Shown: positions 35,659-52,406, numbered from the stretch's first letter. The stretch: 64,000 bases of DNA from Acidobacteriota bacterium (GCA_965263035.1 OZ253580.1:4768001-4832000), one strand, 5' to 3'. Notes: generated by a model not told the origin, from the letters alone. Program-made: numbers and translations.

Positions 35659-38240
35659 AGGTCCGGGTGTCCGATTGGATCACTTCCCAATGGAATCGAT
35701 GCGGGCGGAGGCCCGGCCCCATTCTCTGCTCGACGGTCATCGTCGTTTCCTCAGTCCTTGTTTGCGCGATGGCCGCCTTCGAGGCGCCGGCGCCGAGCCA
35801 CTCCCCGACACTGCTCGCTCTGAGATTGGTCCCGGAGCAGGCGCACTTGACGGGTCCGGAGGCTGCCCAGCGTTTCGTCGTCATGGGGACGTTCGCCGAT
35901 GGTCTGGAGAGGGATCTGACCTCGGACAGCCGGCTTCGAATTTCCGATCCTGAACTGGCGCGCGTGGGTGACGCCGGCAGGGTCGTCGCCCTGGCGCCGG
36001 GCGAGGTGACTCTCCGGGCCCGGATCGGGGGGCGCGAAGCCCAGTCCCGGATTCGAATCGATCCCGGCGCGGCTCAGAGACCCTTCCGTTTCGACCGCGA
36101 TATCGCCTCCATTCTGACCAAACGGGGCTGCAACGCCAGCGAGTGCCACGGCAGCGTCAAGGGAAAGGGAGGTCTCAAGCTCTCCCTCGACGCTCTCTAT
36201 CCGGAAGAGGACCACGAGTGGATCGTGAAAGGGGGGATCTACCAGGTCCTGGTCATGGAATCGGGCGGTCCGCGGGTGCCGCGCGTGAATCCGGAGCGTC
36301 CGGAGGAGAGCCTGCTGCTGCAGAAGGCCGCCATGCAGGTGATCCACGGCGGCGGTGAGCGCCTGGGCGCCGACTCTGCGGACTACGCCGCCCTTCTGGA
36401 TTGGATCCGGGAAGGGGCCGAATATGGCGACCGAAATGAAGATGGGCGGATAGTCCGGGTGACGGTCTTCCCGCAGGAATCCGTCTTGGACGGCAAGGGT
36501 GTACAGCAGCTTCTGGTGACCGCCTACGGACCCGACGGCCGTGGCGAGGACATCAGTCACCAGGCTCGCTACGTCTCCCAGAACCCCCACGTCGTGACGG
36601 TCGACGAAAACGGCCGGGTCACGGCCGCCGGGACGGGAGAGACCACCATCCTGGTCCGCACCGCCGGTCACGCCCTCAGCGCACGCTTCGGAGTCGTGGA
36701 TGCGTCGGCCCCAGTCGACTTCAGAATCGAGCCCCGCAATCTCATCGACGAGCACGTCTTCGCCAAACTGCGAAAGTTCCAGATCCGTCCTTCTGCGCTT
36801 TCCAGCGATTCGGAATTCCTGCGCCGCGTCTGTATGGACATCACCGGCACCCTGCCGCCGCCGGATCGCGTCCGGGAATTCCTGGCCGACCGCGACCCGC
36901 GGAAACGGGACAAGCTCATCGAGACTCTCCTGGACTCTCCCCAGTACGTGGACTATTGGAGTTTCCTGTTCGGGGACCTGTTCCGGGTGACCTACACCTC
37001 CGTGGGCTCGCTCAAGGAGGTCAAGGCATACGGCGACTGGGTCCGCAACGGCATCCTCCAGAACAAGCCCTACGACCGCATGGCGCGGGAACGTATCGCC
37101 GCTCAGGGGTACGCGGCTCCCACCCGTCACTTTTTTCGTTATACCGAACTGGTCGTGCCCCACGAGATCATGGCCGAGCAGGTCCGCGTCTTCATGGGGC
37201 GCCGGCTGGATTGCGCCCAGTGCCACAACCATCCCTTCGAGACCTGGAGCCAGGACCAGTTCTGGGGAATGACCGCCTTTTTCGGCAACGTCACGCAACT
37301 TCTGGATTCCCAATTGGTTTTCGACAATCCGGAGGGTGGGCGATCCTACGACTTGAAACGGGAGGGCATCAAAACCGTCCATCCACGCCGGAAGGAAGAA
37401 GTCCGGGCCGGGTTCCTGGACGGGTCATTCCCGACAGGGGAACAGGAGCGCGATCCGCGCCTGGCTCTGGCCGACTGGATCATCGCCCAGCCCGCCTTCG
37501 CCCGGACCGTCGTGAACCGGGTCTGGGGCTATTACTTCGGCCGGGGAATCGTGGACCCTGTGGACGATTTCAAGGTATCCAACCCGCCGACCCATCCCGA
37601 GCTGCTGTCGGCGCTGGCGGAAGACTTCGTGGAGCACGGCTACGACCTGAAGCACCTGATGAGGCGGATCGTCCGGTCGTGGACCTACCAGACTTCGGGA
37701 GTCCCCAACCGGACCAACCAGGAAGATGGAATCAACTATGCGCGGGCTTTGGCCCGGCCGTTGCAGGCCACCGTCCTGCTGGACGCCATCTCCCACGCCA
37801 CCGGGGTCCCGGAGGAGTTCCCGGTGCACCCCAAGACCGTGCGCACCGGCGCGGCTCGTCCGGGGGCCCGCGCCATCGACCTGATTCCCGAACTGTTTCC
37901 CTGCCATTTCCTCAACGTCTACGGACGGTCCATGCGCAAGTCGCTTCCGGAAAAGCCGTCCCTGACCTTGGCCCAGGCCCTGCACATGTGGGCGGGATCG
38001 ACTTATACGACCAAAATCACCCAGGAGGGCGGACGTCTCGACCGGGCGCTGCGGGAAGGCCTATCCGATGCCCGGATCATCGAAGACTTCTACCTGGCAG
38101 CGCTTTCGCGCTATCCGACCGAACGGGAAAGATCCGACCTGGAAGCGTATGTCCGAGAGGGATCCTCCCCGCGGCCGGAGCAACTGGCGAACCTGATGTG
38201 GGCCCTAATCAGCTCGCGGGAGTTTGCATACAATCATTGA
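35655..38240 (+). CDS. DUF1549/DUF1553 domain protein with Ig-like repeats
   Basis: GCNASECHG, EFLRRV, CAQCHNHP, PTHPELL, EFAYNH; ATGA overlap start. Confidence 0.88.
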   Translation: MKVRVSDWITSQWNRCGRRPGPILCSTVIVVSSVLVCAMAAFEAPAPSHSPTLLALRLVPEQAHLTGPEAAQRFVVMGTFADGLERDLTSDSRLRISDPELARVGDAGRVVALAPGEVTLRARIGGREAQSRIRIDPGAAQRPFRFDRDIASILTKRGCNASECHGSVKGKGGLKLSLDALYPEEDHEWIVKGGIYQVLVMESGGPRVPRVNPERPEESLLLQKAAMQVIHGGGERLGADSADYAALLDWIREGAEYGDRNEDGRIVRVTVFPQESVLDGKGVQQLLVTAYGPDGRGEDISHQARYVSQNPHVVTVDENGRVTAAGTGETTILVRTAGHALSARFGVVDASAPVDFRIEPRNLIDEHVFAKLRKFQIRPSALSSDSEFLRRVCMDITGTLPPPDRVREFLADRDPRKRDKLIETLLDSPQYVDYWSFLFGDLFRVTYTSVGSLKEVKAYGDWVRNGILQNKPYDRMARERIAAQGYAAPTRHFFRYTELVVPHEIMAEQVRVFMGRRLDCAQCHNHPFETWSQDQFWGMTAFFGNVTQLLDSQLVFDNPEGGRSYDLKREGIKTVHPRRKEEVRAGFLDGSFPTGEQERDPRLALADWIIAQPAFARTVVNRVWGYYFGRGIVDPVDDFKVSNPPTHPELLSALAEDFVEHGYDLKHLMRRIVRSWTYQTSGVPNRTNQEDGINYARALARPLQATVLLDAISHATGVPEEFPVHPKTVRTGAARPGARAIDLIPELFPCHFLNVYGRSMRKSLPEKPSLTLAQALHMWAGSTYTTKITQEGGRLDRALREGLSDARIIEDFYLAALSRYPTERERSDLEAYVREGSSPRPEQLANLMWALISSREFAYNH

Positions 38241-38246
38241 GGAACG

Positions 38247-38270
38247 GGAGCGGCGGCTTTCTTGCCGCCG
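38247..38270 (+). repeat. GGAG-foot REP-like hairpin
   Basis: GGAG-CGGCGGCTTTCTTGCCGCCG; same core at 48225..48246. Confidence 0.65.
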
Positions 38271-38349
38271 GACTCCAATGCAACAATGGGCCAAATAAGG
38301 AACGGACGACCGCAACGTCGCCCCCCCAACGAGTAATGGAGAAGGAAAG

Positions 38350-39696
38350 TTGAAAGAATACCGGTGTTTCCAGTGCAGGCGGACCAAACTCGGGCGCCGC
38401 GACTTCCTCCGCGTAGGTTCCCTGAGCTTTCTCGGGATGAACGCCGGCGACCTCCTCAGTCTGGAGCGTCTCCAAGCGGCGGCCGGCGCCAAACCTCCCG
38501 CGGGCCAGGCTCAGGCCTGCATTCTCCTCTTCCTGGAGGGCGGCCCCAGCCAGATGGATACCTGGGATCCCAAGGGGAACACCAACTTCGGCTCCATCGC
38601 CACCAACGTCGACGGCATCCGGATCTCCGAACTCCTGCCCCGGACGGCCGGGCACCTGGACAAGCTCTCGCTGATCCGGTCCATGCGGACGCAGGAGACC
38701 AACCACCCCCAGGGGACCATCGAGTCCCTCACCGGCCATCGGCCCAGCCCCACCATGAAGTTCCCGGGGTTCGGCTCGATCGTGGCCAAGGAAATGGGTC
38801 CCCGCAACGGCATGCCGCCGTTCACCACGGTCCCCATGCCTTGGGAGAACGACTTCTACAACTACGAGGAGGCCTTCAAGGGCTCGTACATCGGCGCCGA
38901 GTACGACGCCATGGTCCTGCCGGACCCCAGCGGAGAGGAATATGTCGTACCCGACCTCCGGTTGCCCAAATCGGTCTCCGCCGCGGCCATCGAAGACCGG
39001 AAGACCCTGCTCAGCATCGTGGACCGGCATTACCGGGCCACCCAGGAGGTGGCCGAGTTCGGCAAGATGGACACTTACCGCGAGCAGGCACTGGGCATGA
39101 TCCTCTCGTCTCACGTCCAGAAGGCGTTCGACCTCTCCAGCGAATCAGAGAAGACCAGGGACGCGTACGGACGCCACCGCTTCGGCCAGAGCGTTCTGAT
39201 GGCCCGCCGCCTGGTGGAGGCCGGGTGCCGCTTCGTCACGGCGGCCGGTTACAAGCACGGGCAGTGGGACACGCACGGGAGCAACGACAAGCGGCTCAAG
39301 GAAGACCTGACCCCTCCCCTGGACCAGGCGCTCACCGCGCTGTTGGAAGATTTGGAACAGAGGGGTCTGTGGGAATCGACGGTGGTGCTGGTCATGGGTG
39401 AGTTCGGGCGGACTCCCCACATCAATCCCGGCCTGGGTCGGGATCACTGGCCCCACTGCTGGTCGTTGGCCCTGGGAGGCGGCGGTATCCAAGGGGGGCA
39501 GGTCATCGGCGTCAGCGACGACCGGGCCGCCTTCGTTGCGGAACGCCCGATCTCCATCGGCGACCTCTACGCCACCATCTACAAGGCGCTGGGTATCGAT
39601 TGGACCAAGACCTACATGGCTCCCGTTGGACGTCCCGTCTACATCGCCAACGGTTTCGACGACACCATGGGGCAGCCCATCCCGGAATTGATCTGA
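38350..39696 (+). CDS. DUF1501 domain protein
   Basis: RRDFL Tat-like motif, GGPSQMDTWDPK, WDTH, GEFGRTP, GRDHWP. Confidence 0.92.
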   Translation: MKEYRCFQCRRTKLGRRDFLRVGSLSFLGMNAGDLLSLERLQAAAGAKPPAGQAQACILLFLEGGPSQMDTWDPKGNTNFGSIATNVDGIRISELLPRTAGHLDKLSLIRSMRTQETNHPQGTIESLTGHRPSPTMKFPGFGSIVAKEMGPRNGMPPFTTVPMPWENDFYNYEEAFKGSYIGAEYDAMVLPDPSGEEYVVPDLRLPKSVSAAAIEDRKTLLSIVDRHYRATQEVAEFGKMDTYREQALGMILSSHVQKAFDLSSESEKTRDAYGRHRFGQSVLMARRLVEAGCRFVTAAGYKHGQWDTHGSNDKRLKEDLTPPLDQALTALLEDLEQRGLWESTVVLVMGEFGRTPHINPGLGRDHWPHCWSLALGGGGIQGGQVIGVSDDRAAFVAERPISIGDLYATIYKALGIDWTKTYMAPVGRPVYIANGFDDTMGQPIPELI

Positions 39697-39709
39697 CGAT
39701 TCGCGCGTT

Positions 39710-42463
39710 GTGACCGCCGCTGATCGCCCCAATTCGCCCTGGCCGCTGGGCTCCTGTCCGACTCTGGCCCGATCCGTTCCGAAACGGATGCACGCGCTGA
39801 CCCTGTACCGGGACCGATACGGTCCGCCCCGGGACGTGGTCCGGCTGGAGCAGGTCGAGGTTCCACGCCTGCGCGCCGCCGACGCCCGGGGTGTCCTCGT
39901 ATCCGTGCTGGCCAGCGGACCCAACTTCAATACCAATTTTGCGGCTCTGGGGCTGCCGGTTCCCGTCTTCGCCCGGGGCGACAGCGCCACCCTGCACATT
40001 CCGGGAAGCGACGCCCTGGGCATCGTGGTGAATGCGGGCCCGGCGGTCCGGTCGGTGAAGGTGGGACAGGCCGTCATTCTCGATTCCTGGACGGGTCACA
40101 ACATCCGCGGCTACGAGACCCACGACGGCTTCAATGCCCAGTTCGCCCTGGTCGACGAAGAGCGCGCCATTCCGCTGCCCCCGTCCCTCGGCGGCCACAG
40201 CCCCGAGCAGCTCTCGGCCATGCTACTCACCTACGGCACAGCCTACCGCACCGTAGTCGAGCGTCTGGCCGTCGGTCCGGGAGATTCCATGCTGGTCCTG
40301 GGAGGCGGGAAGGGAACCAGCTTCGCCGCCGCACAACTGGGAAAGGCCCTCGGAGCCCGCGTCGTCCTGATGGGTTCGAATCCGAAGTTGGGCCGATCCC
40401 TCATCGAACGGGGAATCACCGACGCCTTCGTCGACCGGCGGCAGATCCCGGCCGAGGTCTTCGGCGTGGTCGACGTGGCGGAAGAATATGACCGGTGGTA
40501 CGCTCGGACTGAGCCCTTTCGCCGGATCGTGCTGGCCGCCAATCAAGGTCGTCCTGTGGACACGGTCTTCGAGCATACCGGGGGCGCCAACTTTCCTCTG
40601 CTGGTTTCGGTTCTCGGCCCGAACGGACGACTCGCCTTCTTCGGCGCCACCGGCCGGGGCCTCAAGGGCGAATACAAGGAGACCTTCTTCTACGACGGAC
40701 GGCGCTTCGTCATGGACGCCCGCTGGGTCTGGATGCGCCAGAAGCAGGTCCTCTTTCGGAGCGGGACCCCGGCGGAGATCTTCTCGGAGATCGGTCTGCT
40801 GCCGGGGCGAAGAGGGCTGGTCTGGGGCGCCGACCGGTACGCGCGGGATTTCGTCGAGGCCGCACTGCAGCGGCGGGCGGACCTGGCGGTGGTCGCCTCC
40901 CGTTCCCGGGAATCGGAAGGGCTGGCCGCTCTGTTCCGGATGGGCCTCACCGAGTCGCAGGTCATCGATCGCGATCGGTTCCGTCTACCCGACGACATGC
41001 CGGATCCCTTGACCGACGAGGGGACGCCGAATCCCGCCTACATGTCCGATTTCATGATGGACGCCCGGGCTCTGGGCCGGGCCATCTGGGGGGTCTTCGG
41101 TCCTCGGGTCAATCCGGACTTCATCGTGGAGCGGCCCGATCAGAGTACGCTGCACGTGAGCACATTCCTGCTGAGGGACCATGACGAGAAGGACGAGATG
41201 CCGTGCGGCGTCGTCGTCGCCCGCGGGTCGTCCGACCTGACCGTCTCCGGCTCCCACATGTATCGAGCGGCCCAGGCTCGGGAGACGGTCCGACTGCTGG
41301 CCCGGAATCGAATCGTCATGGACCAGGAGGACCTGGAGGTGGTGAGCCTGTCCGGACTGCCGGAGATCCAGCAGAAGATGCTGGACGGCACCATGGCGAA
41401 ACCCAAGGGGGTGGCGCTGGTCCAGGCGGACGCCGCAGGCCGGAGGATCTCCGACTACGAAGCCGAGTACCTGGGCAAAAAGCTCCGAGAGGCCGACCCG
41501 GAAAACGGCCGGTTCATCGCCTTGAGCCTGATCGACGAGGTAGGAATCCTCACACTCCAAAGGCCGGACGCCTTGAACGCTCTCAATCAGGAACTGCTAG
41601 ACCAGCTCGCCGGGTTGGTGGAAGAGGTCGAGAAGCACGGGTCCCTCCACGGAGAAAAGACGAGCGCCCTGATCCTGCGTGGCTCGGGACGAGCTTTCGT
41701 GGCGGGGGCCGACGTCCAGGGCTTCGTGGGCCGGGACGCGGAGGCCATCCGGCGTCTGGCAGCGGAGAACATGGCTCTCTTCCGGCGGCTGGAAACCCTG
41801 CCTCTTCCGGTGGTGTCGATCGTGGACGGCTTCGCGCTGGGAGGCGGCAACGAGCTGGCCATGAGCACCCACTATCGAATCGTCACTGAGAACGCGGTCA
41901 TCGGGCAGCCGGAAGTGAAGCTCGGCATCATTCCCGGATACGGGGGCATGCAGAGGCTGCCGAGGCTTATCGGTCCGCGGAGAGCCGCGGAGATGGCGGT
42001 CAACGGAGAATCGGTGGACGGACGCACGGCGGTGATGATCGGGCTGGCCCAAGAGTTCCATCCCTCCTGCACCGCCCTGGCCAGAGCGTTTCAGGTGGCC
42101 GGCGAGCTCCGGTCCGGGACGCATCGGCCCGAAGCGTCCGATTGGGATCGCCTCGCTGCCACCCACGGTCCCGAAATGGATACGCTCTACCAAAGCGAGG
42201 CCGTGACCACACTCTTGAATGCGCCGGCTCCCACCGGCAGGGGCGCGGAAGATCTGCGGGCCGCTCGCGAGTTCGCGGCCCGGTTGGCGCTGACGGCCCT
42301 GCGGTTCGGTTACGAGCACGGGTTCGCCCGCGGCATGGACAACGACGCGAGACTGTTCGGTGAAGCCGTGGCGTCGGCGTCCGGTCAGTGGTGGGTGCGG
42401 CGTTTTCTGGCGAAAGATCCCAGGCAGTCCACTTTCCTGACCTTGCTGGCGCCCGAGGTGTAA
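39710..42463 (+). CDS. Fusion of a crotonyl-CoA carboxylase/reductase-like MDR domain and a C-terminal enoyl-CoA hydratase
   Basis: NFN, HIPGSDALGIV, GYETHDG..AQF, WMRQK, GSH (Ccr-like); FVAGAD, GGGNEL, GQPEVKLGIIPGYGG (crotonase, both catalytic Glu). Confidence 0.85.
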   Translation: MTAADRPNSPWPLGSCPTLARSVPKRMHALTLYRDRYGPPRDVVRLEQVEVPRLRAADARGVLVSVLASGPNFNTNFAALGLPVPVFARGDSATLHIPGSDALGIVVNAGPAVRSVKVGQAVILDSWTGHNIRGYETHDGFNAQFALVDEERAIPLPPSLGGHSPEQLSAMLLTYGTAYRTVVERLAVGPGDSMLVLGGGKGTSFAAAQLGKALGARVVLMGSNPKLGRSLIERGITDAFVDRRQIPAEVFGVVDVAEEYDRWYARTEPFRRIVLAANQGRPVDTVFEHTGGANFPLLVSVLGPNGRLAFFGATGRGLKGEYKETFFYDGRRFVMDARWVWMRQKQVLFRSGTPAEIFSEIGLLPGRRGLVWGADRYARDFVEAALQRRADLAVVASRSRESEGLAALFRMGLTESQVIDRDRFRLPDDMPDPLTDEGTPNPAYMSDFMMDARALGRAIWGVFGPRVNPDFIVERPDQSTLHVSTFLLRDHDEKDEMPCGVVVARGSSDLTVSGSHMYRAAQARETVRLLARNRIVMDQEDLEVVSLSGLPEIQQKMLDGTMAKPKGVALVQADAAGRRISDYEAEYLGKKLREADPENGRFIALSLIDEVGILTLQRPDALNALNQELLDQLAGLVEEVEKHGSLHGEKTSALILRGSGRAFVAGADVQGFVGRDAEAIRRLAAENMALFRRLETLPLPVVSIVDGFALGGGNELAMSTHYRIVTENAVIGQPEVKLGIIPGYGGMQRLPRLIGPRRAAEMAVNGESVDGRTAVMIGLAQEFHPSCTALARAFQVAGELRSGTHRPEASDWDRLAATHGPEMDTLYQSEAVTTLLNAPAPTGRGAEDLRAAREFAARLALTALRFGYEHGFARGMDNDARLFGEAVASASGQWWVRRFLAKDPRQSTFLTLLAPEV

Positions 42464-42472
42464 CCGGGGCCG

Positions 42473-43015
42473 TCAACGGTTTCTGGCCGGATCCTCCAGG
42501 AACAGCTTGAAGCGGACTTGCTCCCAATCACCCCAGTTCCTTCTTCTCTGGAAGAGGAAGTGGACCTCCGAATCTTCGGTGCCGCGAAAGGCGCGGAGAG
42601 TGTTCTCCCAGTTCTGCACCTGGTCCTGGTATTGGGGCCGGCCCGTCTTGCTCAACTGTCTTTCTTCTGCCGTCCCCATCGGGACGGCTGTCGACCGCAG
42701 ATACAGAGTCCCGACGATGGGAATGACTCGATCCGACTCCGTTTCAGTCCGCGCTTCGCCCGGGACGGTGGCGACGACCTCTTCGCCCTTCAGAAAGACC
42801 AGGGAACAGCCTTCCTCCTCGCGCCGGACTTCCAGATCGAAGCCACCCCGGTCCAACCGCTGGCCGTCCTCCGTGTAAAGGTCCCGATCCAGCCGGATCT
42901 CGGTCACATAGACCTCGACGGCTGCCCGCACCTGACCCGCACCTACAGCCAGGATCGCAATCAGGTGGACTCCGGCGACGAAATGCAGACATCGGAGTAG
43001 ACGGGTCCCATTCAT
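42473..43015 (-). CDS. Hypothetical secreted protein
   Basis: Signal peptide ending VRA; start overlaps the hicB stop. Confidence 0.65.
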   Translation of the reverse strand: MNGTRLLRCLHFVAGVHLIAILAVGAGQVRAAVEVYVTEIRLDRDLYTEDGQRLDRGGFDLEVRREEEGCSLVFLKGEEVVATVPGEARTETESDRVIPIVGTLYLRSTAVPMGTAEERQLSKTGRPQYQDQVQNWENTLRAFRGTEDSEVHFLFQRRRNWGDWEQVRFKLFLEDPARNR

Positions 43016-43227
43016 GAGACGATTCCCGTTTCTCGGATGGCCTCAGGGGGCACACCGCGCAATTCTTTCTCGCGGCGTTCCTTGAGGATGAGCGCTATGG
43101 CCTCCGCCAGATTGTCACGAGCCTCATCCTTGGACTTGCCCTGACCGTTGGCGCCAGGGATTTCCGGGCAGTAGGCAATATGCCACTCTCCGTCCCGCTC
43201 GATAATGGACGTGAACGGATTCGTCAC
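43012..43227 (-). CDS. hicB: HicB-family antitoxin (short form)
   Basis: IAYCPEIPGANGQGKSKDEARDNLAEAI. Confidence 0.85.
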   Translation of the reverse strand: MTNPFTSIIERDGEWHIAYCPEIPGANGQGKSKDEARDNLAEAIALILKERREKELRGVPPEAIRETGIVS

Positions 43228-43343
43228 CGTTGAAGTCTCCCAAAATATCGCCCCTCAGGTCAAAGGGCGATTTGACCCTCAAGGTGAATCTCATCGGGCT
43301 CACGAGGCGACTCGCCATTCAGGGATAGGCGACCCGTGGTACT

Positions 43344-44041: not shown

Positions 44042-45511
44042 TTAACTTCGCTGGAGTAGCCGCCGTGAGAGGTCGTTGTAACCCCCCACGTCGGTGAGTC
44101 GCCGGTCCCGTCCCTGGAAGAAGTAGGTGAGTCCTTCGTGGTCCAGGCCCAGCAGCGAGAGGATGGTGGCGTGCAGGTCGTGGACGTGAACCTTGTCCTC
44201 GGTCGCCTTCATTCCCAGGTCGTCGGTGGCGCCGATGGCCTTCCCTCCCTGGATTCCGGCTCCCGTCATCCAGCATGAGAATCCGTACGGGTGATGATCC
44301 CGGCCGAGTTTTCCCTGCACGAACGGCGTCCGGCCGAATTCCCCGGAACAGAACACCAGGGTGCTCTCCAGCAGCCCCCGCTGCTTGAGATCCTGCAGCA
44401 GGCCGGCGATGGGCTGGTCCACCTTTCTGGAGTTGTCCCAATGGTTCCGGGAACATTGCTCGTGGCCGTCCCAGTCGGTGCTGATCAGGTGTACGAAGCG
44501 GACGCCGCGTTCCAACATGCGCCGGGTCAGCAGGCACATCCGCCCGAACTTCCGGCTCTTTTCCTGGTCCAGTCCGTACAGCCGGCGGATGTGTTCCGGC
44601 TCCCGGGAGAGGTCGACGAGTTCCGGCGCGGCGGTCTGCATTCGGAAAGCCAGCTCATAGTTGGAGATGCGAGCCGCCAGACTCGTGTCGTCGGAGCGGG
44701 CCTGGTAGTGCCGCCGGTTCGACTTCCGGATCCAGTCCAGGAGGTTCCGCTGATCCGCCGGGGTCATCTCCTGGGGAGGAGTCAGGTCCTTGAGAGGGGC
44801 GCCCTCGGAGCGCAGCAGGGTGCCCTGGTAGATGGCGGGCAGGAACCCGGAGCCGAAGTGGTTCCGGTTGGTCCGGCCCCACAAGTTGCCGTCGGTCATC
44901 ACCATGTAGGCGGGAAGATTGTCGTTCTCGCTCCCCAGGCCGTACAGGATCCAGGACCCGACGCTGGGATGTCCCGTGAGGATGGAACCGGTGCAGAGGT
45001 AGTTGGTCGCCGGACCGTGGACGAAGGAATCATGGTAGCAGGAGCGGACCACTGCCAAGTCGTCGGCGTGCGTGGCCACCTTCCGCATGAGATCCGAAAT
45101 CTCCAGCCCCGACTCCCCGTACCTGCGAAAGGGGATGTCCGAACCCATCAGCTTGGCTTCGCCGGCGGCGATATTGGCGAAATTGAGATCGCCCGAGGCG
45201 AAGCTCTGGGGAAGGTTCTGGCCGTCGTAGCGCGTCAGAGCCGGCTTGGGATCCAGGGTGTCCACATGGCTGGCGCCTCCCTGGAGATAGATGAAGACCA
45301 CGTTGCGGCCACTTGCGCTCTGGTGAGGAGGCTTGGGTGCGAGCGGGTGCAGAATCGATTCCCGGGTCCCCTTGGCGGAGGCCGTCCGGAAGAAGGATTC
45401 CCGCTCCAGCAGATGGATCAGCGGCAGGGAGCCGAAGCCCATTCCCCACTTGCTCAGGAACTCGCGTCGTGAGCCGGCCGGTTCATGGCGATGGCAGTGG
45501 AAGGGATTCAT
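44042..45511 (-). CDS. DUF1501 domain protein
   Basis: SRREFL, GGASHVDTLDPKP, WDGH, GEFGRTP, GRDHHP. Confidence 0.92.
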   Translation of the reverse strand: MNPFHCHRHEPAGSRREFLSKWGMGFGSLPLIHLLERESFFRTASAKGTRESILHPLAPKPPHQSASGRNVVFIYLQGGASHVDTLDPKPALTRYDGQNLPQSFASGDLNFANIAAGEAKLMGSDIPFRRYGESGLEISDLMRKVATHADDLAVVRSCYHDSFVHGPATNYLCTGSILTGHPSVGSWILYGLGSENDNLPAYMVMTDGNLWGRTNRNHFGSGFLPAIYQGTLLRSEGAPLKDLTPPQEMTPADQRNLLDWIRKSNRRHYQARSDDTSLAARISNYELAFRMQTAAPELVDLSREPEHIRRLYGLDQEKSRKFGRMCLLTRRMLERGVRFVHLISTDWDGHEQCSRNHWDNSRKVDQPIAGLLQDLKQRGLLESTLVFCSGEFGRTPFVQGKLGRDHHPYGFSCWMTGAGIQGGKAIGATDDLGMKATEDKVHVHDLHATILSLLGLDHEGLTYFFQGRDRRLTDVGGYNDLSRRLLQRS

Positions 45512-45526
45512 GGAATAAACCGCTTC

Positions 45527-48148
45527 TCAATCAATATGGCTGAACTCGTTGACATTAAACAGTCCCAGGCAGAACTGGGTCAAGGCTGCGGCCCGCCGCC
45601 GTGGAATCTTCTCGAGCTGGGCCGGAAGCTCGAACCATTTCTCTACCTTCACCTCCCGGGCTCGGGCCGACATCAGTTCCAGGGCTTCCTTCTTCTCCGT
45701 GGCGGACGGCGCCCGGCTCAGGGCAAGCCGCCACGCCTTCTCCACCCAGGCTCCCGGGTCGTCCCCCTCGCTCTCCACCAGTCGGGACGCAAAGGCCACT
45801 GCCTGCCGGAACGCCATCCGGTTGTTGAGGAACCAGAGGGCCTGCGGCGCTACCGTGGTGACGTCACGGCGGGGGCAGCTGACGGCGTTCTGGGGGCTGT
45901 CGAAGACGTCGAACATGGGAAACCGGAGATTGCGGCGGCTGAGGATATAGACGCCCCGGCGGAGTTGGGAGAGGGGGTCCGCGACGGTCAGCCAACCTTT
46001 GGGACCTCCCAGGCTTTCCATCTCTTCAGCTCCGAGTGGCGGCGCCGCCGGACGGCCGTACACCCCGAGATTCAGGGTGCCGGCCACCGCAAGGGTGGCG
46101 TCCCAGAGGACTTCCGCTTCCAACCGCCGCCGGTTCATCCTCCAGAGGAGACGGTTTTCGGGATCCAGCGAGTAAGCGGCCGGATCGCCGTGCAAGCTCG
46201 ACATGCGGTAAGTGCTGGAGTTCAGGATCAGCCAGTGCATCGCCTTGAGGCTCCAGCTCCGGGCCGTGAACTCGACGGCCAGCCAATCCAGGAGCTGTGG
46301 ATGACTGGGCTGCTCTCCCTGGCGGCCGTAGTCGTTGGGAGTTCCCACCAGTCCTTGTCCGAAATGCCATTGCCAGAGCCGGTTCACCATGACCCGAGCG
46401 GTGAGAGGGTGGTCCGGACGGCTCAGCCAGAGCGCCAACTGCTTGCGGGGGCGGTTCCCCATTGATCCCGAGAAGACGCCATTGGGATCGGTCTCCCGGC
46501 TAAGCACCGCCGGCAAGCCGGGTCCGACCCGTTCCTCCTTGCGTCTGAACTCGCCTCGACTCAAGACGTGAACGGGTGCGGAAGCCTCCCGATCGTAATG
46601 ATCCAGCACTGAAGCGGTCGGTAACTCAAGCAGTCCTTCGAACCGGACCAGATTGGAGCCCTCGATCTCGGAGACCTTGAGTACGGCCCGGGCCAGCCCG
46701 AAAAGCAATTTTTGGTGTTCGTCCTGCTCCGGCTCGGTCAGAGCCTCCTCGAATTTGACGGCACGGACCGCCTCCATCAGGAGTTTGGCCAATTCTTCCT
46801 GCTCCGGGGTCCGCCGATCATTGTCCGTCTCGTAGGCTTCCACCACTTCCGGTGAAAATTGCGCCTTCTTCTCCTGTTCGATCCTCTTTTTGACCCGTTT
46901 CTCGAATCGGCGATAAGCGGAACGGCTTTCGTCCACGGCGATGACGGCGGGGTAGTCGATGTTCCGCGAGACCGCCTGAATGGGACTCATGATGGGGACG
47001 TCGACCTTGTGGCTGTTGGCGAACAGGGCCTGGAAGGCGTAGTAGTCCCTCTGGCTGATGGGGTCTGCTTTGTGATCGTGACAGCGGGCGCAGCCCAGAG
47101 TGAGCCCCAGAAAGGCGGCGCCGGTGGTGTCCGCCCAATCGGTCAGTTCTTCGGCGCGCAACTGCTGGGCGTCCTGCATCGACTCCAGCACCTCGGGCCC
47201 GAACGTGTAGAGGCCGGTTCCGACCCGTGCTTCCAGGTATTCGTTCTTCTTCAGGGGAATGGTCCGGCTCCCCAGGAGCTCGAATCGTTGGGGCCAGAGC
47301 TCGTCGCCTGCGACCTGCTCCTGCAGGAAACGGTCGTAGGGCTTGTCCTCGTTGAACGACTTGATGACGTAGTCCCGATACCGCCAGGCGTTGGGGTAGT
47401 AGTGGTCCGACTCGTATCCGCTGCTGTCGGCATAGCGGACCACGTCCAGCCAGTGCCGGGCCCAGCGCTCGCCGTAGCGTGGCGATTCCAGCAGCTTGCC
47501 CACCATCTTGCCGTAGGCCTCGGGCGAGTCGTCTTCCAGGTGCCGGTCCACCTGCTCCGGCGTCGGCGGAAGTCCGATGAGATCGAAGTAGGCTCTTCGG
47601 ATCAGGGTTCGCCGGTCGGCCTCGGGCGCCGGTTTCAAGCCCTTTTCCTGAAGCCGGGCCAGCACGAATGCATCGATGGGGTTCCGGACCCAGCCGTCCG
47701 CTTCCGTCTCTGGAACGGGTGGCCGCCGGAGCTTCCGGAACGACCACCAGGAGGGTGGGGAGGGGCCGTCTTCCCGGACGCCGGTCCAAGGAAGGCCGGC
47801 GTCGATCCAGCGGCGCAGCACCTCCAGATCCGCAGCCGCCAGCGGAGAGCCGCCCGGGGGCATTTTCAGCTCGCCGTCATGGGAAGCGGCCAGAAACAGC
47901 AGGCTTGAGCCGGCGTCTCCGGGAATCGCCGCCGGACCCCGCTGGCCGCCTTCCAGCAGAGTTTGCCTCCCGCTCAGATCAAGTCCCCCCTGGCGCGCCA
48001 CGCCATGGCAGGCAAGGCAGTCCCGCTCCAGAATCTCAAGAGCGGCCCCCACCACCGATCCGTCCGATTCCGTAGCGATAGTACTACCGGTCAGGAATGG
48101 CAGCGACCAGAACACGATGGCCAGGAAGGCATAAAGCCGGTTGATCAT
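45527..48148 (-). CDS. Planctomycete cytochrome c + DUF1549/DUF1553 (PSD1) protein
   Basis: CLACH, YGERWARHWLD, CARCHDHK, HPLTARVMVNRLW. Confidence 0.92.
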   Translation of the reverse strand: MINRLYAFLAIVFWSLPFLTGSTIATESDGSVVGAALEILERDCLACHGVARQGGLDLSGRQTLLEGGQRGPAAIPGDAGSSLLFLAASHDGELKMPPGGSPLAAADLEVLRRWIDAGLPWTGVREDGPSPPSWWSFRKLRRPPVPETEADGWVRNPIDAFVLARLQEKGLKPAPEADRRTLIRRAYFDLIGLPPTPEQVDRHLEDDSPEAYGKMVGKLLESPRYGERWARHWLDVVRYADSSGYESDHYYPNAWRYRDYVIKSFNEDKPYDRFLQEQVAGDELWPQRFELLGSRTIPLKKNEYLEARVGTGLYTFGPEVLESMQDAQQLRAEELTDWADTTGAAFLGLTLGCARCHDHKADPISQRDYYAFQALFANSHKVDVPIMSPIQAVSRNIDYPAVIAVDESRSAYRRFEKRVKKRIEQEKKAQFSPEVVEAYETDNDRRTPEQEELAKLLMEAVRAVKFEEALTEPEQDEHQKLLFGLARAVLKVSEIEGSNLVRFEGLLELPTASVLDHYDREASAPVHVLSRGEFRRKEERVGPGLPAVLSRETDPNGVFSGSMGNRPRKQLALWLSRPDHPLTARVMVNRLWQWHFGQGLVGTPNDYGRQGEQPSHPQLLDWLAVEFTARSWSLKAMHWLILNSSTYRMSSLHGDPAAYSLDPENRLLWRMNRRRLEAEVLWDATLAVAGTLNLGVYGRPAAPPLGAEEMESLGGPKGWLTVADPLSQLRRGVYILSRRNLRFPMFDVFDSPQNAVSCPRRDVTTVAPQALWFLNNRMAFRQAVAFASRLVESEGDDPGAWVEKAWRLALSRAPSATEKKEALELMSARAREVKVEKWFELPAQLEKIPRRRAAALTQFCLGLFNVNEFSHID

Positions 48149-49020: not shown

Positions 49021-49187
49021 ATTAAGTCCGAAAGCTTCAATTTGTAGGTTGAAGGATCTGGACAAATGCCGCGCCGTGGCAGAATCGACTTTATCCAGGT
49101 TTCCTGTTAGTCTCGCCGGGTTTCGAGCGGGCGGTCCCTGGTGCGGTGACGGCTCGTAGCGAATCCCATCCAACACGAGAGGCGCTC

Positions 49188-50183
49188 ATGGCATTGACAA
49201 CCGAAGCGACCCCCTCGAAAGGACTTGACCCCGCCGCCCGGCTGGACCTGCTGCGTCAGATGCTCACGATTCGGGCGTTCGAGTACCGGGTGGGGGAGTT
49301 CTACGAACGGGCCGAGATGCCGGGCATCACCCATCTCTCCATCGGACAGGAGGCGGTGGCCGTCGGCGTCTGCGCTCACCTCGACCGAAAGGACTACATC
49401 ACCAGCACCCATCGCGGACATGGCCACTGTTACGCCAAAGGCGCCAGCTTGGTCCCCATGTTCGGCGAGTTGCTGGGCAAGGCGAACGGATACTGCCGCG
49501 GCAAGGGCGGGTCCATGCACATCGCCGACCGGGAAACGGGCCACCTGGGAGCCAACGCCATCATCGGCGGGGGCATACCGCTGGCGGCAGGCGCCGCCCT
49601 CTCCGCCAAGGTGCTCCGGAATCGGGGCGTCGGCGTCTCATTCTTCGGCGACGGAGCCCTCAACGAGGGCATCCTGTTGGAAACGATGAACCTGGCCGCC
49701 ATCTGGAAGTTGCCCGCCATCTTTGCCTGCGAGAACAATCACTATGGGGAATACACCCCCACGGAGCAGGTGACCGCCGGCCGCCTCACGCTCCGCGGAG
49801 AGGCCTTCGGCATCCCCTCGTCGGAAGTCGACGGGATGGACGTCCTGGCCGTCTACGACGCCACGTATCCGGCGGTTCAACGTGCCAGGGAGGGTGGTGG
49901 CCCCAGCTTCTTCGTCTTCGACACCTACCGCTACCTGGGTCACGGCATGTCGGATCGAACCAGGCCCTACCGCTCGCGTGAGGAAGAGGACGAGTGGCGG
50001 AGCCGGCGAGACCCCATCGAGCGATTGAGAAAGCAGCTGTTGGAGGCGGGGCACTACACCGATCCGGAACTGGATGCCGTTGGAGAGGAGGTCCGGGCCG
50101 AGGTGGAGGAAGCCGCGCGATTGGCTCAAGAAGCGCCGTTCCCGGACCCGGAAGAGGTGGACCGACATGTCTTCGCAGACTGA
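49188..50183 (+). CDS. TPP-dependent 2-oxoacid/acetoin dehydrogenase E1 alpha
   Basis: GQEAV, THRGHGH, GKGGSMH, FGDGA...ENN TPP motif. Confidence 0.92.
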   Translation: MALTTEATPSKGLDPAARLDLLRQMLTIRAFEYRVGEFYERAEMPGITHLSIGQEAVAVGVCAHLDRKDYITSTHRGHGHCYAKGASLVPMFGELLGKANGYCRGKGGSMHIADRETGHLGANAIIGGGIPLAAGAALSAKVLRNRGVGVSFFGDGALNEGILLETMNLAAIWKLPAIFACENNHYGEYTPTEQVTAGRLTLRGEAFGIPSSEVDGMDVLAVYDATYPAVQRAREGGGPSFFVFDTYRYLGHGMSDRTRPYRSREEEDEWRSRRDPIERLRKQLLEAGHYTDPELDAVGEEVRAEVEEAARLAQEAPFPDPEEVDRHVFAD

Positions 50184-51168
50184 AGCTCGCCAACTGACCT
50201 TCAGCCAAGCCGTCAACGAGGCGATCCGGGAGGAAATGGATCGCGATCATCGAGTGATCCTGTTCGGTGAGGACGTGGCGGCGGCCGGAGGGGTCTGGAA
50301 GGTGACCGACGGACTCCTGGACCGCTTCGGGGCGGAACGAGTCCTGGATACGCCCATCTCCGAAGCCGGAATCGCCGGTTTGGGCGTGGGGGCGGCCATG
50401 ACCGGTCTGCGGCCCATCGTAGAGATCATGTTCGGTGACTTTCTGCCGCTCGCCTCCGATCAGATCGTCAACCAGGCGGCCAAGACGTATTACATGTCAG
50501 GCGGGATGACCAGCGTCCCCATGGTCTTCCTCACCTCCATGGGCGCCGGGCGCCGTTTGGCGGCTCAGCACTCTCAAAGCCTGCAAGCCTGGTTCGCCCA
50601 TATCCCCGGGTTGAAGGTGGTGCTGCCGTCAAGCCCCCAAGACGCCAAGGGCCTGATGAAGACCGCCATCCGGGACGAGAATCCAGTGGTCTTCCTGCAG
50701 GACAAGGTGGACATCTACCGGAAGGGTCCGGTTCCCGATCCTTCCCACGAGTACACCATCCCCTTCGGTCGCGCCGACGTGAAGCGGGAGGGGGACGATC
50801 TGACCCTGATCGCCACCTCCAGCATGGTCTGGCAGGCCCTGGACGCGGCTTCGGAGTTGGCGGACGAGGGCATCGAGTCGGAGGTCGTCGACCCGCGCAC
50901 CCTGGCGCCGCTGGACGAAGAGGCGCTGCTGGACTCGGTCCGAAAGACGGCTCGCTGTCTGGTGATCGACGAGGGCTACCAGCGCTATGGGGCGGGAGCC
51001 GAGATCGCGGCTCTGATCGGCGAGAATCTGTTCTACGATCTGGAGGCGCCGGTTCGCCGGCTCGGCGCCATGGACGTTCCGGTTCCTTTCTCGCCGACGC
51101 TGGAGGACCTGACCATTCCCCGCAAGGAGCAGATCGTCGAGATCGCCCGCCAGATGTTCGAAGACTGA
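50167..51168 (+). CDS. Dehydrogenase E1 beta subunit
   Basis: GEDV, DTPISEAG, AAQHSQ, DPRTLAPLD. Confidence 0.92.
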   Translation: MSSQTEARQLTFSQAVNEAIREEMDRDHRVILFGEDVAAAGGVWKVTDGLLDRFGAERVLDTPISEAGIAGLGVGAAMTGLRPIVEIMFGDFLPLASDQIVNQAAKTYYMSGGMTSVPMVFLTSMGAGRRLAAQHSQSLQAWFAHIPGLKVVLPSSPQDAKGLMKTAIRDENPVVFLQDKVDIYRKGPVPDPSHEYTIPFGRADVKREGDDLTLIATSSMVWQALDAASELADEGIESEVVDPRTLAPLDEEALLDSVRKTARCLVIDEGYQRYGAGAEIAALIGENLFYDLEAPVRRLGAMDVPVPFSPTLEDLTIPRKEQIVEIARQMFED

Positions 51169-51236
51169 CCGGTCGTCTACAACCGGGCCTCGCCATTGCC
51201 GGGAACTTTCCATCGATTCCAATTCGGAGAGGATTT

Positions 51237-52406
51237 GTGGCCACTGAAGTGATCATGCCTGCGCTGGAGATGTCCCAGGAGCAGGGCGTCCTGGTGCGTT
51301 GGTTCAAGTCCGAGGGGGAGTTCGTGGCCCGGGGCGAACCCCTGATGGAGATCGAGACCGACAAGGCGGTCATGGAGATCGAAGCCGCCGCATCCGGGGT
51401 CCTGTCCAACGTCACGGCCCGGGAGGGGGACGAGATCCCGGTGGGCCAGGGGATCGCGTGGCTCCTGAGCGAAGGTGAAGCGGCCCCCTCGCCGGCGGTC
51501 GGTGCGCCCGGAAAGCAGCGACCGTCCACTCGCCCCGCAACCGCCCGCCGCGCACGCGGCACAAAGACCGGAACCCGCACTCGCTCCCGGCGGGGAAGGG
51601 TCCGGGCGTCCCCCCGAGCCAGGAAGATGGCCCGCAAGTTGGGCATCGATCTGGCCACCGTCACCGGATCCGGCCCCAAGGGCGCCATCCTGCCCCGGGA
51701 TCTTGAGGCGCACGAGGCGGCTTCCAAAAAAGACGCCGCTGCGGAATCGGAATATCGCGTTATTCCCATCCAGGGAACGCGACGCTCCATCGCCCGTCGC
51801 ACGAGCGACAGCTACCGGAATGCCCCCCACATTTCTCTCTCCCTCTCCCTGGACGTGACCGACCTGCAAGCCAGGACGACTCCGCAACGCCGTCTCACGC
51901 CTTGTCTACTGAAAGCGGTGGCCGATGCGCTCATGAAACACCCCCGGCTCAACGCCCATCTGGTGGAGGAGGAGATCCGCGAGTTCAGGGCGGTTCATCT
52001 TGGGGTCGCCGTCTCTCTGGAAGACGGTCTCGTGGTTCCGGTTCTGCGGAACGTGGAGCAGAAGGGAATCGAACGGATCCAGACAGAACTGGCGGATCTG
52101 GCCGATCGATCCCGAAAGCGGAGGCTCCAGCCTGACGAGATGAAGGGAAGCACCTTCTCGGTCTCCAACCTGGGCATGTACGGCATCGAGCAGTTCACCT
52201 CCATCCTGAATCCGCCCGAAGTCGGGATCCTCTCGGTAGGGACCGTCCGCTCCGTGCCGGTGGTGGTGGACGGGCAGGTCGCCGTCCGTTCCAGGATGCA
52301 GGTGACCGTGAACGCCGATCACCGGGCCGTGGACGGCGCCGCGGCGGCCCGGTTTCTGCAGACCCTCAAGGAGTCCATCGAATCCGCCGGCGAGGCGGTG
52401 TCCTGA
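51237..52406 (+). CDS. Dihydrolipoamide acyltransferase E2
   Basis: Lipoyl ETDKA, E3-binding ASPRARK..GSGPKG, catalytic DHRAVDG. Confidence 0.92.
   Translation: MATEVIMPALEMSQEQGVLVRWFKSEGEFVARGEPLMEIETDKAVMEIEAAASGVLSNVTAREGDEIPVGQGIAWLLSEGEAAPSPAVGAPGKQRPSTRPATARRARGTKTGTRTRSRRGRVRASPRARKMARKLGIDLATVTGSGPKGAILPRDLEAHEAASKKDAAAESEYRVIPIQGTRRSIARRTSDSYRNAPHISLSLSLDVTDLQARTTPQRRLTPCLLKAVADALMKHPRLNAHLVEEEIREFRAVHLGVAVSLEDGLVVPVLRNVEQKGIERIQTELADLADRSRKRRLQPDEMKGSTFSVSNLGMYGIEQFTSILNPPEVGILSVGTVRSVPVVVDGQVAVRSRMQVTVNADHRAVDGAAAARFLQTLKESIESAGEAVS

Follow-up and report, generated by a model that had tools for sequence, protein, structure and literature searches.

Architecture of the Reductase-Crotonase Gene

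The stretch of DNA analyzed here, 64,000 nucleotides (nt) from an Acidobacteriota bacterium (GCA_965263035.1 OZ253580.1:4768001-4832000; hereafter the window, with positions counted from its first letter), contains an intact gene for a protein of 917 amino acids (aa) in which an enoyl-CoA reductase is followed, in the same chain, by a crotonase. A reductase-first fusion of this kind, related to the enoyl-CoA carboxylase/reductases (Ecr) and resembling crotonyl-CoA carboxylase/reductase (Ccr) at its N terminus, had been proposed in an earlier sequence-only reading, and both the Pfam matches and an alignment with the propionyl-CoA synthase (PCS) structure 6eqo bear out this architecture. The gene and the features within it are as follows.

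39710..42463, + strand: whole gene, 917-aa reductase-crotonase fusion, intact (list of open reading frames, ORFs)
39710..41479, + strand: reductase half, residues ~1-590, an MDR-superfamily enoyl-CoA reductase of the Ecr/PCS type (Pfam, TIGR01751, PDB, Foldseek)
39923..39934, + strand: NFNT, residues 72-75, with N74 corresponding to the CO2-holding Asn81 of Ccr and T75 to the second-shell Thr82 (alignments)
40109..40120, + strand: GYET, residues 134-137, with Y135 corresponding to Ccr Phe170 and E136 to Glu171 (alignments)
40745..41209, + strand: insertion in the cofactor domain, residues ~346-500 (6eqo alignment, double Ecr matches, DSSP)
41249..41257, + strand: GSH, residues 514-516, with H516 corresponding to Ccr His365 (alignment with the second domain of AntE)
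41507..42460, + strand: crotonase half, residues ~600-917, an enoyl-CoA hydratase/dehydratase (ECH_1, PDB matches)
41852..41854, + strand: E715 in GGGNE (711-715), first catalytic Glu (aligned to the conserved Glu of 5z7r, 5zai, and 6eqo)
41912..41914, + strand: E735 in QPEV (733-736), second catalytic Glu (aligned to the conserved Glu of the same three structures)

The ORF starts with GTG and ends with the stop codon at 42461-42463, and the stop of an upstream DUF1501 gene lies 14 nt before the GTG in the junction sequence. Residues W11, L13, P17, and P24 are at least 90% conserved in the family, so that translation begins upstream of M27. A word-indexed search over 5.8 billion proteins returned 483 matches, the best 120 of which are all 888-982 aa long, with 97-100% query coverage, 63-91% identity, and the same Pfam set; among the matches listed, the source names, where given, are "enoyl-CoA hydratase(-related)," "zinc-binding dehydrogenase," and "hypothetical protein." The AlphaFold2 model of the whole protein has a pLDDT of 86 and a pTM of 0.86. 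The presence of an intact two-enzyme fusion carrying the motifs listed above is thereby confirmed.

Pfam places ADH_N at residues 90-157 (28 bits, cut-off 23.5), ADH_zinc_N at 206-318 (30 bits, slightly below its cut-off of 31.8), and ECH_1 (PF00378) at 611-801 (138 bits, cut-off 27), so that the N-terminal half combines the GroES-like N-domain and the Rossmann cofactor domain of the MDR superfamily and the C-terminal half belongs to the crotonase superfamily. No AMP-binding (ligase) domain was matched by Pfam in the 917-aa protein. In a search of all PDB chains, the whole protein matched 6eqo_A best (165.7 bits), which Foldseek labels as the tri-functional PCS of Erythrobacter sp. NAP1. Query residues 611-903 align to 6eqo 906-1203 and residues 35-489 to 6eqo 1265-1727, from which it follows that the domains are in the opposite order to those of PCS; the missing ligase and the inverted order had both been claimed from the sequence, and both stand. 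The same structure is the top fold match of the whole-protein model (E 1.8e-33, 662 aligned columns), followed by the Ecr structures 4gi2, 4y0k, 9kva, 3krt, 6owe, and 4a0s, and the Foldseek matches include Ecr and quinone reductase structures.

The crotonase half bears a C-terminal helical extension resembling that of the PCS dehydratase domain. Its PDB matches include 5z7r (122 bits), 5zai (118.9 bits; the 3-hydroxypropionyl-CoA dehydratase of M. sedula), 6eqo at residues 906-1203 (103 bits), 3pea, and 1dub. Both expected catalytic Glu residues are present, and each is invariant in the 121 family sequences (at least 62% identity) used as the conservation set throughout (E715, 121/121; E735, 121/121); E715 is taken to be catalytic from the textbook description of rat enoyl-CoA hydratase.

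A PCS-type Insertion in the Reductase Half

The resemblance of the N-terminal half to Ccr holds in the sense that it is Ecr-like, and its best sequence match lies there (4gi2, 107.8 bits, compared with 70 bits for 6eqo; HMMER against the PDB), but it is not a plain Ccr. The protein scores 175.3 bits on TIGR01751 over residues 22-347, against a cut-off of 378.55, and thus falls outside the Ecr/Ccr family as defined by that model. In addition, the reductase half is ~150 residues longer than Ecr and contains an insertion of ~140 aa (141 residues), made up of an extra β-α-β unit and a diverged repeat of the Ecr cofactor domain's C-terminal half. The 6eqo alignment passes through this insertion with clear similarity, and DSSP assigns strand-helix repeats at residues 346-420. 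Two separate matches to the query were obtained with each of AntE, 9kva, and one Ecr-sized protein, and likewise with the TIGR01751 model, at positions 3-331 and 189-396. A BLASTP comparison of residues 190-350 with 355-570 gave no significant similarity (E 0.73); an internal duplication is suggested solely by the double matches of the Ecr sequences and the TIGR01751 model.

An exhaustive HMMER search of residues 1-600 against 1.84 billion representatives gave 2,027 matches at E<=1e-3 and 42 at E<=1e-30. In an alignment of 46 rows, the insertion columns are mostly filled in seven family, six PCS-sized, and nine other multi-domain rows and in none of the 18 Ecr-clade rows, which separates the family from the uninserted Ecr/Ccr form of ~400-450 aa. 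With the insertion columns removed, a quick maximum likelihood tree of these rows (the weak or fragmentary P0176, P0301, P0350, and P0331 had been left out, and no match was obtained for P0175) resolves the family (support 100, on a long stem), the PCS-type and other multi-domain proteins (87), and the Ecr clade (97), with the branching order among the three unsettled: neither uniting all 23 insertion-bearing rows in one clade (p-AU 0.549) nor grouping the family with the Ecr clade (p-AU 0.588) is rejected. The core-sequence tree does not put the family inside the PCS clade, and what points to kinship with PCS is the insertion common to both, together with the fold match, rather than the core sequence.

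A search for shorter proteins, as candidates for a stand-alone reductase of the family, gave fragments and generic quinone reductases only. Insertion-bearing reductases were also found in other multi-domain proteins: P0334 (939 aa, 34% identical), which represents a second reductase-then-crotonase lineage, P0311 (reductase then MaoC dehydratase), P0333 (2,640 aa; HpcH/HpaI, MaoC, and reductase), and P0356 (2,388 aa; crotonase-ligase-reductase). The reductase-first order is therefore not unique to the family, and PCS belongs to a broader group of proteins that is still largely unexplored. Precomputed Pfam matches also list P0176 and P0178, of 4,553 and 3,910 aa, which combine ligase and crotonase with SDR or carboxyltransferase domains.

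Family Distribution and a Malonyl-CoA Reductase-like Partner

A scan of one genome per species found a relative in 126 species, from which 80 loci were kept. The nearest relatives, at 88-92% identity, are in Acidobacteriota metagenome-assembled genomes; other hosts include Desulfobacterota/"Deltaproteobacteria," Deferrimicrobiaceae, Actinomycetota, Gemmatimonadota, Methylomirabilis, Accumulibacter, and Propionivibrio, with identities across phyla of 62-91%. Within the phylum of the window the distribution is patchy: the gene is carried by eight of 301 sampled genomes, among them all four other members of the genus.

At 21 of the 80 loci, a protein of ~1,670 aa is encoded directly downstream on the same strand with a gap of -72 to +37 nt (ORF clustering and tblastn), as an in-frame fusion in 15 cases and as a separate, abutting gene in six. 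The 59 loci without this partner include seven with <1,500 nt of downstream sequence, which are not assessable, so that it is present at about three in 10 assessable loci. A search for longer proteins gave 49 fusion clusters of 2,026-2,647 aa (P0122-P0170). Examples from other genomes, with a region of the partner discussed below, are as follows.

L071:9980-17731: example locus, with a 2,583-aa ORF as an in-frame fusion
L076:2475-7559: example partner locus
L076:2475-4169: region X, a conserved, mostly helical region of ~565 aa at the start of the partner (with 17 aligned copies)

The partner is a multi-SDR protein with two to three adh_short matches in Pfam, and its best PDB matches are 8hjw and 8hi4 (~1,220 aa), with 6k8v, 8aew, 8hi5, and 8hi6 further down. 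Of these, 8HI4, 8HI5, and 8HI6 are the bifunctional malonyl-CoA reductase (MCR) of Roseiflexus castenholzii, in which a YXXRXXY motif in SDR1 (Y172, R175, Y178; with K182 and T165) and in SDR3 (Y743, R746, Y749) binds the carboxylate of malonate semialdehyde or malonyl-CoA (PMC10470521). All 13 partner copies compared keep both motifs unchanged; the first module has YPGRLPY and the second ST...YLFR(T/A)IYTVSK. MCR makes 3-hydroxypropionate, and the fusions thus tie the family to C3 (3-hydroxypropionate) chemistry. The partner departs from MCR in several respects: the module resembling the C-terminal half of MCR precedes that resembling the N-terminal half, the reverse of the Chloroflexus-type enzyme; the usual Lys of YxxxK in the first module is Gln, with a Lys three residues later; an extra ~565-aa region is present at the N terminus; and the whole is joined to a reductase-crotonase.

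This N-terminal region, region X, sits where a module activating 3-hydroxypropionate would be expected. It matched no Pfam or NCBIfam family, a sequence search of the PDB gave a chance match only (E 0.64), and its atlas score of 0.76 is under the lead threshold of that resource. For its model (pLDDT 80.5), the best Foldseek match had an E of 0.012 and a TM of 0.13, and VIA-align returned only TPR-like hairpins at residues 289-353 with Z <=9.9, within the noise for helical models. A ligase or CoA-transferase fold was accordingly not found for region X by sequence, family, atlas, or fold searches.

Proposed Reaction and Substrate

The reading we favor, with a rough probability of 0.4, is that of a bifunctional, NADPH-dependent enzyme that works like a PCS without its ligase and yields propionyl-CoA. 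The C-terminal crotonase would dehydrate a short 3-hydroxyacyl-CoA, most likely 3-hydroxypropionyl-CoA, to the enoyl-CoA (acrylyl-CoA), to which the N-terminal Ecr/PCS-type reductase would add a hydride, the resulting enolate then being protonated to propionyl-CoA. The substrate CoA ester would be supplied by a separate enzyme, and the fusion of both activities in one chain may keep the reactive, toxic acrylyl-CoA from escaping.

Several lines of evidence favor this reading. PCS is the best or near-best solved relative of both halves by sequence and fold; the insertion is common to PCS-type proteins and absent from the Ecr clade; the MCR-like partner is fused or abutting at 21 of 80 loci; and 5zai is among the top matches of the crotonase. 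The genome of the window can, moreover, process propionyl-CoA. The sequence-only reading had pointed to epi, ecm, and mcd genes as worth seeking, and in the search of this genome a methylmalonyl-CoA epimerase above cut-off, two MCM-family mutases, and one full-length PCC-type carboxyltransferase were found, but no canonical Ccr above the TIGR01751 cut-off (the fusion itself scores 142 bits there, with a second piece). As either propionyl-CoA or methylmalonyl-CoA could be used by this set, genome content is uninformative on the product, and so are the 16 HpcH/HpaI genes of this genome. The sole other Ecr-leaning reductase observed in it is a 354-aa MDR protein (G000:C1:3257958-3258965, - strand), with 103 and 72 bits on the crotonyl-CoA reductase model, below cut-off.

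Several observations weigh against this assignment. The MCR-like partner is absent from the genome of the window and from five of five other genomes with a stand-alone copy, so that the link to 3-hydroxypropionate holds for only some of its members; neither a ligase nor a CoA-transferase is fused to the protein or consistently found beside the gene across the 80 loci; and no metabolic partner was found among the window neighbors. The residue following the pocket Asn and the columns that discriminate Ecr from PCS, described below, also count against it.

The absence of the partner from the six genomes with stand-alone copies that were searched would fit substrates of C4 or longer, or branched ones, for example (S)-3-hydroxybutyryl-CoA converted via crotonyl-CoA to butyryl-CoA or ethylmalonyl-CoA, with roles in fermentation, in fatty-acid or polyhydroxyalkanoate metabolism, or in extender-unit supply. 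The inclusion of general short-chain enoyl-CoA hydratases (5z7r, 3pea, 1dub) among the crotonase matches, the crotonyl-CoA carboxylase/reductases at the top of the reductase matches, and a 2-oxoacid dehydrogenase operon ~6.7 kb downstream of the gene, syntenic in seven related loci, are in keeping with such substrates. Fused and stand-alone forms, however, share 62-70% identity and the same invariant active-site residues, a pattern that favors a single substrate family-wide, and the fusion partner bears the malonate-binding MCR motifs; in the genome of the window, moreover, neither a canonical Ccr nor a recognizable marker of the ethylmalonyl-CoA pathway scored above cut-off. A C4 or longer substrate appears improbable.

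More improbable still is a different role altogether, such as hydration and detoxification of acrylyl-CoA in the opposite direction, or action on a non-CoA substrate. The lack of a functional neighbor in the window, the patchy distribution, and the absence of experimental data in the literature searched would accommodate such a role, but the two active sites are complete and highly conserved, and the nearest relatives of both domains are CoA-ester enzymes.

CO2-pocket Residues and the Fate of the Enolate

In K. setae Ccr, the CO2 pocket is formed by N81, F170, E171, and H365, with T82 and S119 as a second shell that orients N81 (PMC6628652). Residues of the window protein were mapped onto it through HMMER alignments to 4gi2, AntE, and 9kva and a MAFFT alignment that included relatives of Ecr and of PCS size. 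The NFN, GYET, and GSH motifs, which had been matched by eye to the Asn, aromatic-Glu, and His of Ecr, indeed fall at these positions in the alignments, which predict a complete four-residue pocket (Asn81, Phe/Tyr170, Glu171, and His365); S100 maps to the second-shell Ser119. Among the family sequences, N74 (121/121), Y135 (121/121), G514 (121/121), and H516 (121/121) are invariant, and E136 (120/121), S515 (120/121), S100 (119/121), and T75 (117/121; Ser in three, Ala in one) nearly so.

Conservation of this order raises the alternative that the same two steps end in true reductive carboxylation, the acrylyl-CoA-derived enolate attacking CO2 held by N74, Y135, E136, and H516, so that 3-hydroxypropionyl-CoA would give (2S)-methylmalonyl-CoA without ATP. 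In that case the protein would do naturally what the "carboxylating PCS" was engineered to do, and the MCR fusions would correspond, in nature, to the reductive branch of the synthetic HOPAC cycle. We hold this to be a serious, if still tentative, possibility. Some Ecrs likewise carry Tyr at the Phe170 position, and F170Y Ccr keeps 100% carboxylation (PMC6628652). The PCS-sized rows of the MAFFT alignment retain Asn and His in six of six cases but Tyr-Glu in only four, the Glu being lost in two. The residue after the pocket Asn is Asp in all six of them, whereas it is Thr, as in K. setae Ccr, in the seven family rows and Gly, Asn, Ser, or Thr, never Asp, in the 19 Ecr-sized rows; nor does Asp occur at this position anywhere in the family. 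The T82D and S119A forms of Ccr are slowed >50-fold (PMC6628652). At 21 columns that discriminate Ecr from PCS, the family is Ecr-like at 10, PCS-like at four, and neither at seven. The higher score of the reductase half against 4gi2 than against 6eqo and the presence, in the same genome, of an epimerase and mutases for methylmalonyl-CoA with no other Ccr also fit carboxylation.

The Ecr-like states of the family may, on the other hand, be retained ancestral ones. PCS itself reportedly has a native carboxylation yield of a few percent, and the Asp beside its pocket Asn is said to have been mutated. Wild-type PCS, with the same four pocket residues, is reported to act as a reductase and not as a carboxylase (PMC7918591, PMC10266731), with almost no carboxylation until engineered (PMC7918591, PMC10176493, PMC10266731); the pocket signature is therefore not diagnostic of CO2 fixation, and it is this behavior that speaks for protonation. 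Likewise, T82D and S119A Ccr, although slow, still carboxylate nearly fully, so that Thr versus Asp is no switch, and E171 and H365 of Ccr also serve substrate and NADPH binding, so that their conservation need not mean the use of CO2 (PMC6628652). The TIGR01751 score far below cut-off, the release of water by the adjoining dehydratase beside the active site, the low model confidence of the loops with pocket residues (78-92 and 131-137, with pLDDT <50 at 131-137), and the PCC-type carboxyltransferase of the same genome add to the case against carboxylation. Taken together, the Thr, the discriminating columns, and the unrejected grouping with the Ecr clade make carboxylation to methylmalonyl-CoA nearly as likely as protonation to propionyl-CoA, which we rate only slightly above it.

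A further-reaching proposal, less likely than not, is that the family constitutes a natural ATP-free carboxylating module. The MCR fusions, of 2,350-2,650 aa, would then provide most of a one-chain route from malonyl-CoA to methylmalonyl-CoA, a natural reductive branch of HOPAC, with region X as the candidate activator of 3-hydroxypropionate and possibly an unrecognized form of carbon assimilation in uncultured Desulfobacterota, Deferrimicrobia, Actinomycetota, and Acidobacteriota.

Comparison with Known Systems

The window protein shares with PCS (Erythrobacter sp. NAP1, 6EQO, and Chloroflexus aurantiacus) a crotonase dehydratase with the same C-terminal helical extension, an Ecr-related reductase with the same ~140-aa insertion, the joining of dehydratase and reductase in one chain, and Asn, Tyr, Glu, and His at the pocket positions. 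It differs in having no N-terminal AMP-binding ligase, a domain that the PCS relatives P0171-P0175 carry as PF00501 and PF13193, and in its order, PCS running ligase-dehydratase-reductase and the window protein reductase then dehydratase. Identity to PCS is only 30-37%, the length is 917 aa against ~1,800 aa, and Thr replaces Asp after the pocket Asn. With Ecr/Ccr (K. setae, 6OWE; M. extorquens, 4GI2; AntE, 4Y0K; CinF, 4A0S), it has in common the MDR fold, the four pocket residues, and the second-shell Thr and Ser, but it is set apart by its sub-threshold TIGR01751 score, the insertion, the crotonase fusion, and its separate clade.

For the archaeal 3-hydroxypropionate/4-hydroxybutyrate cycle (M. 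sedula 5ZAI and acrylyl-CoA reductase), where the comparison covers the dehydratase, the same two reactions are proposed, carried out by two separate enzymes in place of one chain. MCR (R. castenholzii 8HI4; 8HJW) resembles not the window gene but the fusion partner in other genomes, in its multi-SDR composition and in both motifs (ST...YxxRxxYxxxK and YPxRxxY).

Within the literature searched, the architecture has not already been characterized: a full-text search found no ligase-less or reductase-first PCS-like enzyme and no MCR fusion, although a mention in PCS structure papers or their supplements is possible, and passages of PMC11599936, bioRxiv 10.64898/2026.09.02.748891, and PMC9802188 deal with canonical PCS and MCR only. 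The link to MCR-like fusions is new here. PCS and Ecr are the reference systems for sequestering a toxic intermediate and for holding CO2, and building blocks of synthetic CO2-fixation cycles; the PCS reductase domain needed engineering in order to carboxylate (PMC10266731). A widespread, conserved family that combines a PCS-type scaffold with an Ecr-like pocket and second shell, without a ligase and in the opposite order, bears on what, besides the four pocket residues, steers the enolate toward protonation or carboxylation. Should the family carboxylate, nature has already made a carboxylating PCS; if it only reduces, it would represent a new, compact, natural way of handling acrylyl-CoA and a marker for 3-hydroxypropionate metabolism in uncultured lineages.

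Transcripts and Genomic Neighborhood

Metatranscriptome contigs near-identical to the gene were found in four runs from two studies. In one run, a 2,930-nt contig spans 39577-42506 and with it the whole gene; from that study, two further runs cover it in part, as does one run from the other study. These contigs are consistent with transcription, although DNA carry-over can also yield them, and depth differences between the gene and its neighbors cannot be read from contigs; the uncovered parts of the gene in X14 and X17 carry no weight. In all three runs of the one study the contigs break at 39577-39606, at the junction with the DUF1501 gene, a pattern that contigs alone do not allow to be interpreted. 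No sigma-70-like promoter was detected within 38000-43300.

The remaining features around the gene are listed below.

28373-30898, - strand: leucine-rich-repeat protein, 841 aa
31018-33636, - strand: adjoining leucine-rich-repeat protein, 872 aa
35517-39696, + strand: PSCyt/PSD1 and DUF1501 gene pair, also with Big_2, upstream of the gene
42473-43015, - strand: 180-aa ORF with a hydrophobic N terminus and no family match
44042-48148, - strand: second PSCyt/PSD1 and DUF1501 gene pair, so that the two pairs flank the gene
49146-52406, + strand: 2-oxoacid dehydrogenase operon (E1 alpha, E1 beta, lipoyl E2)

The other genes that recur nearby across the 80 loci (CoaE, cytochrome bd, LarA-like, PdxA, CorA, a methyltransferase, and a nucleoside transporter) are each confined to particular lineages and offer no hint of a pathway. 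The 180-aa ORF is found directly downstream of the gene in nine related Acidobacteriota loci.

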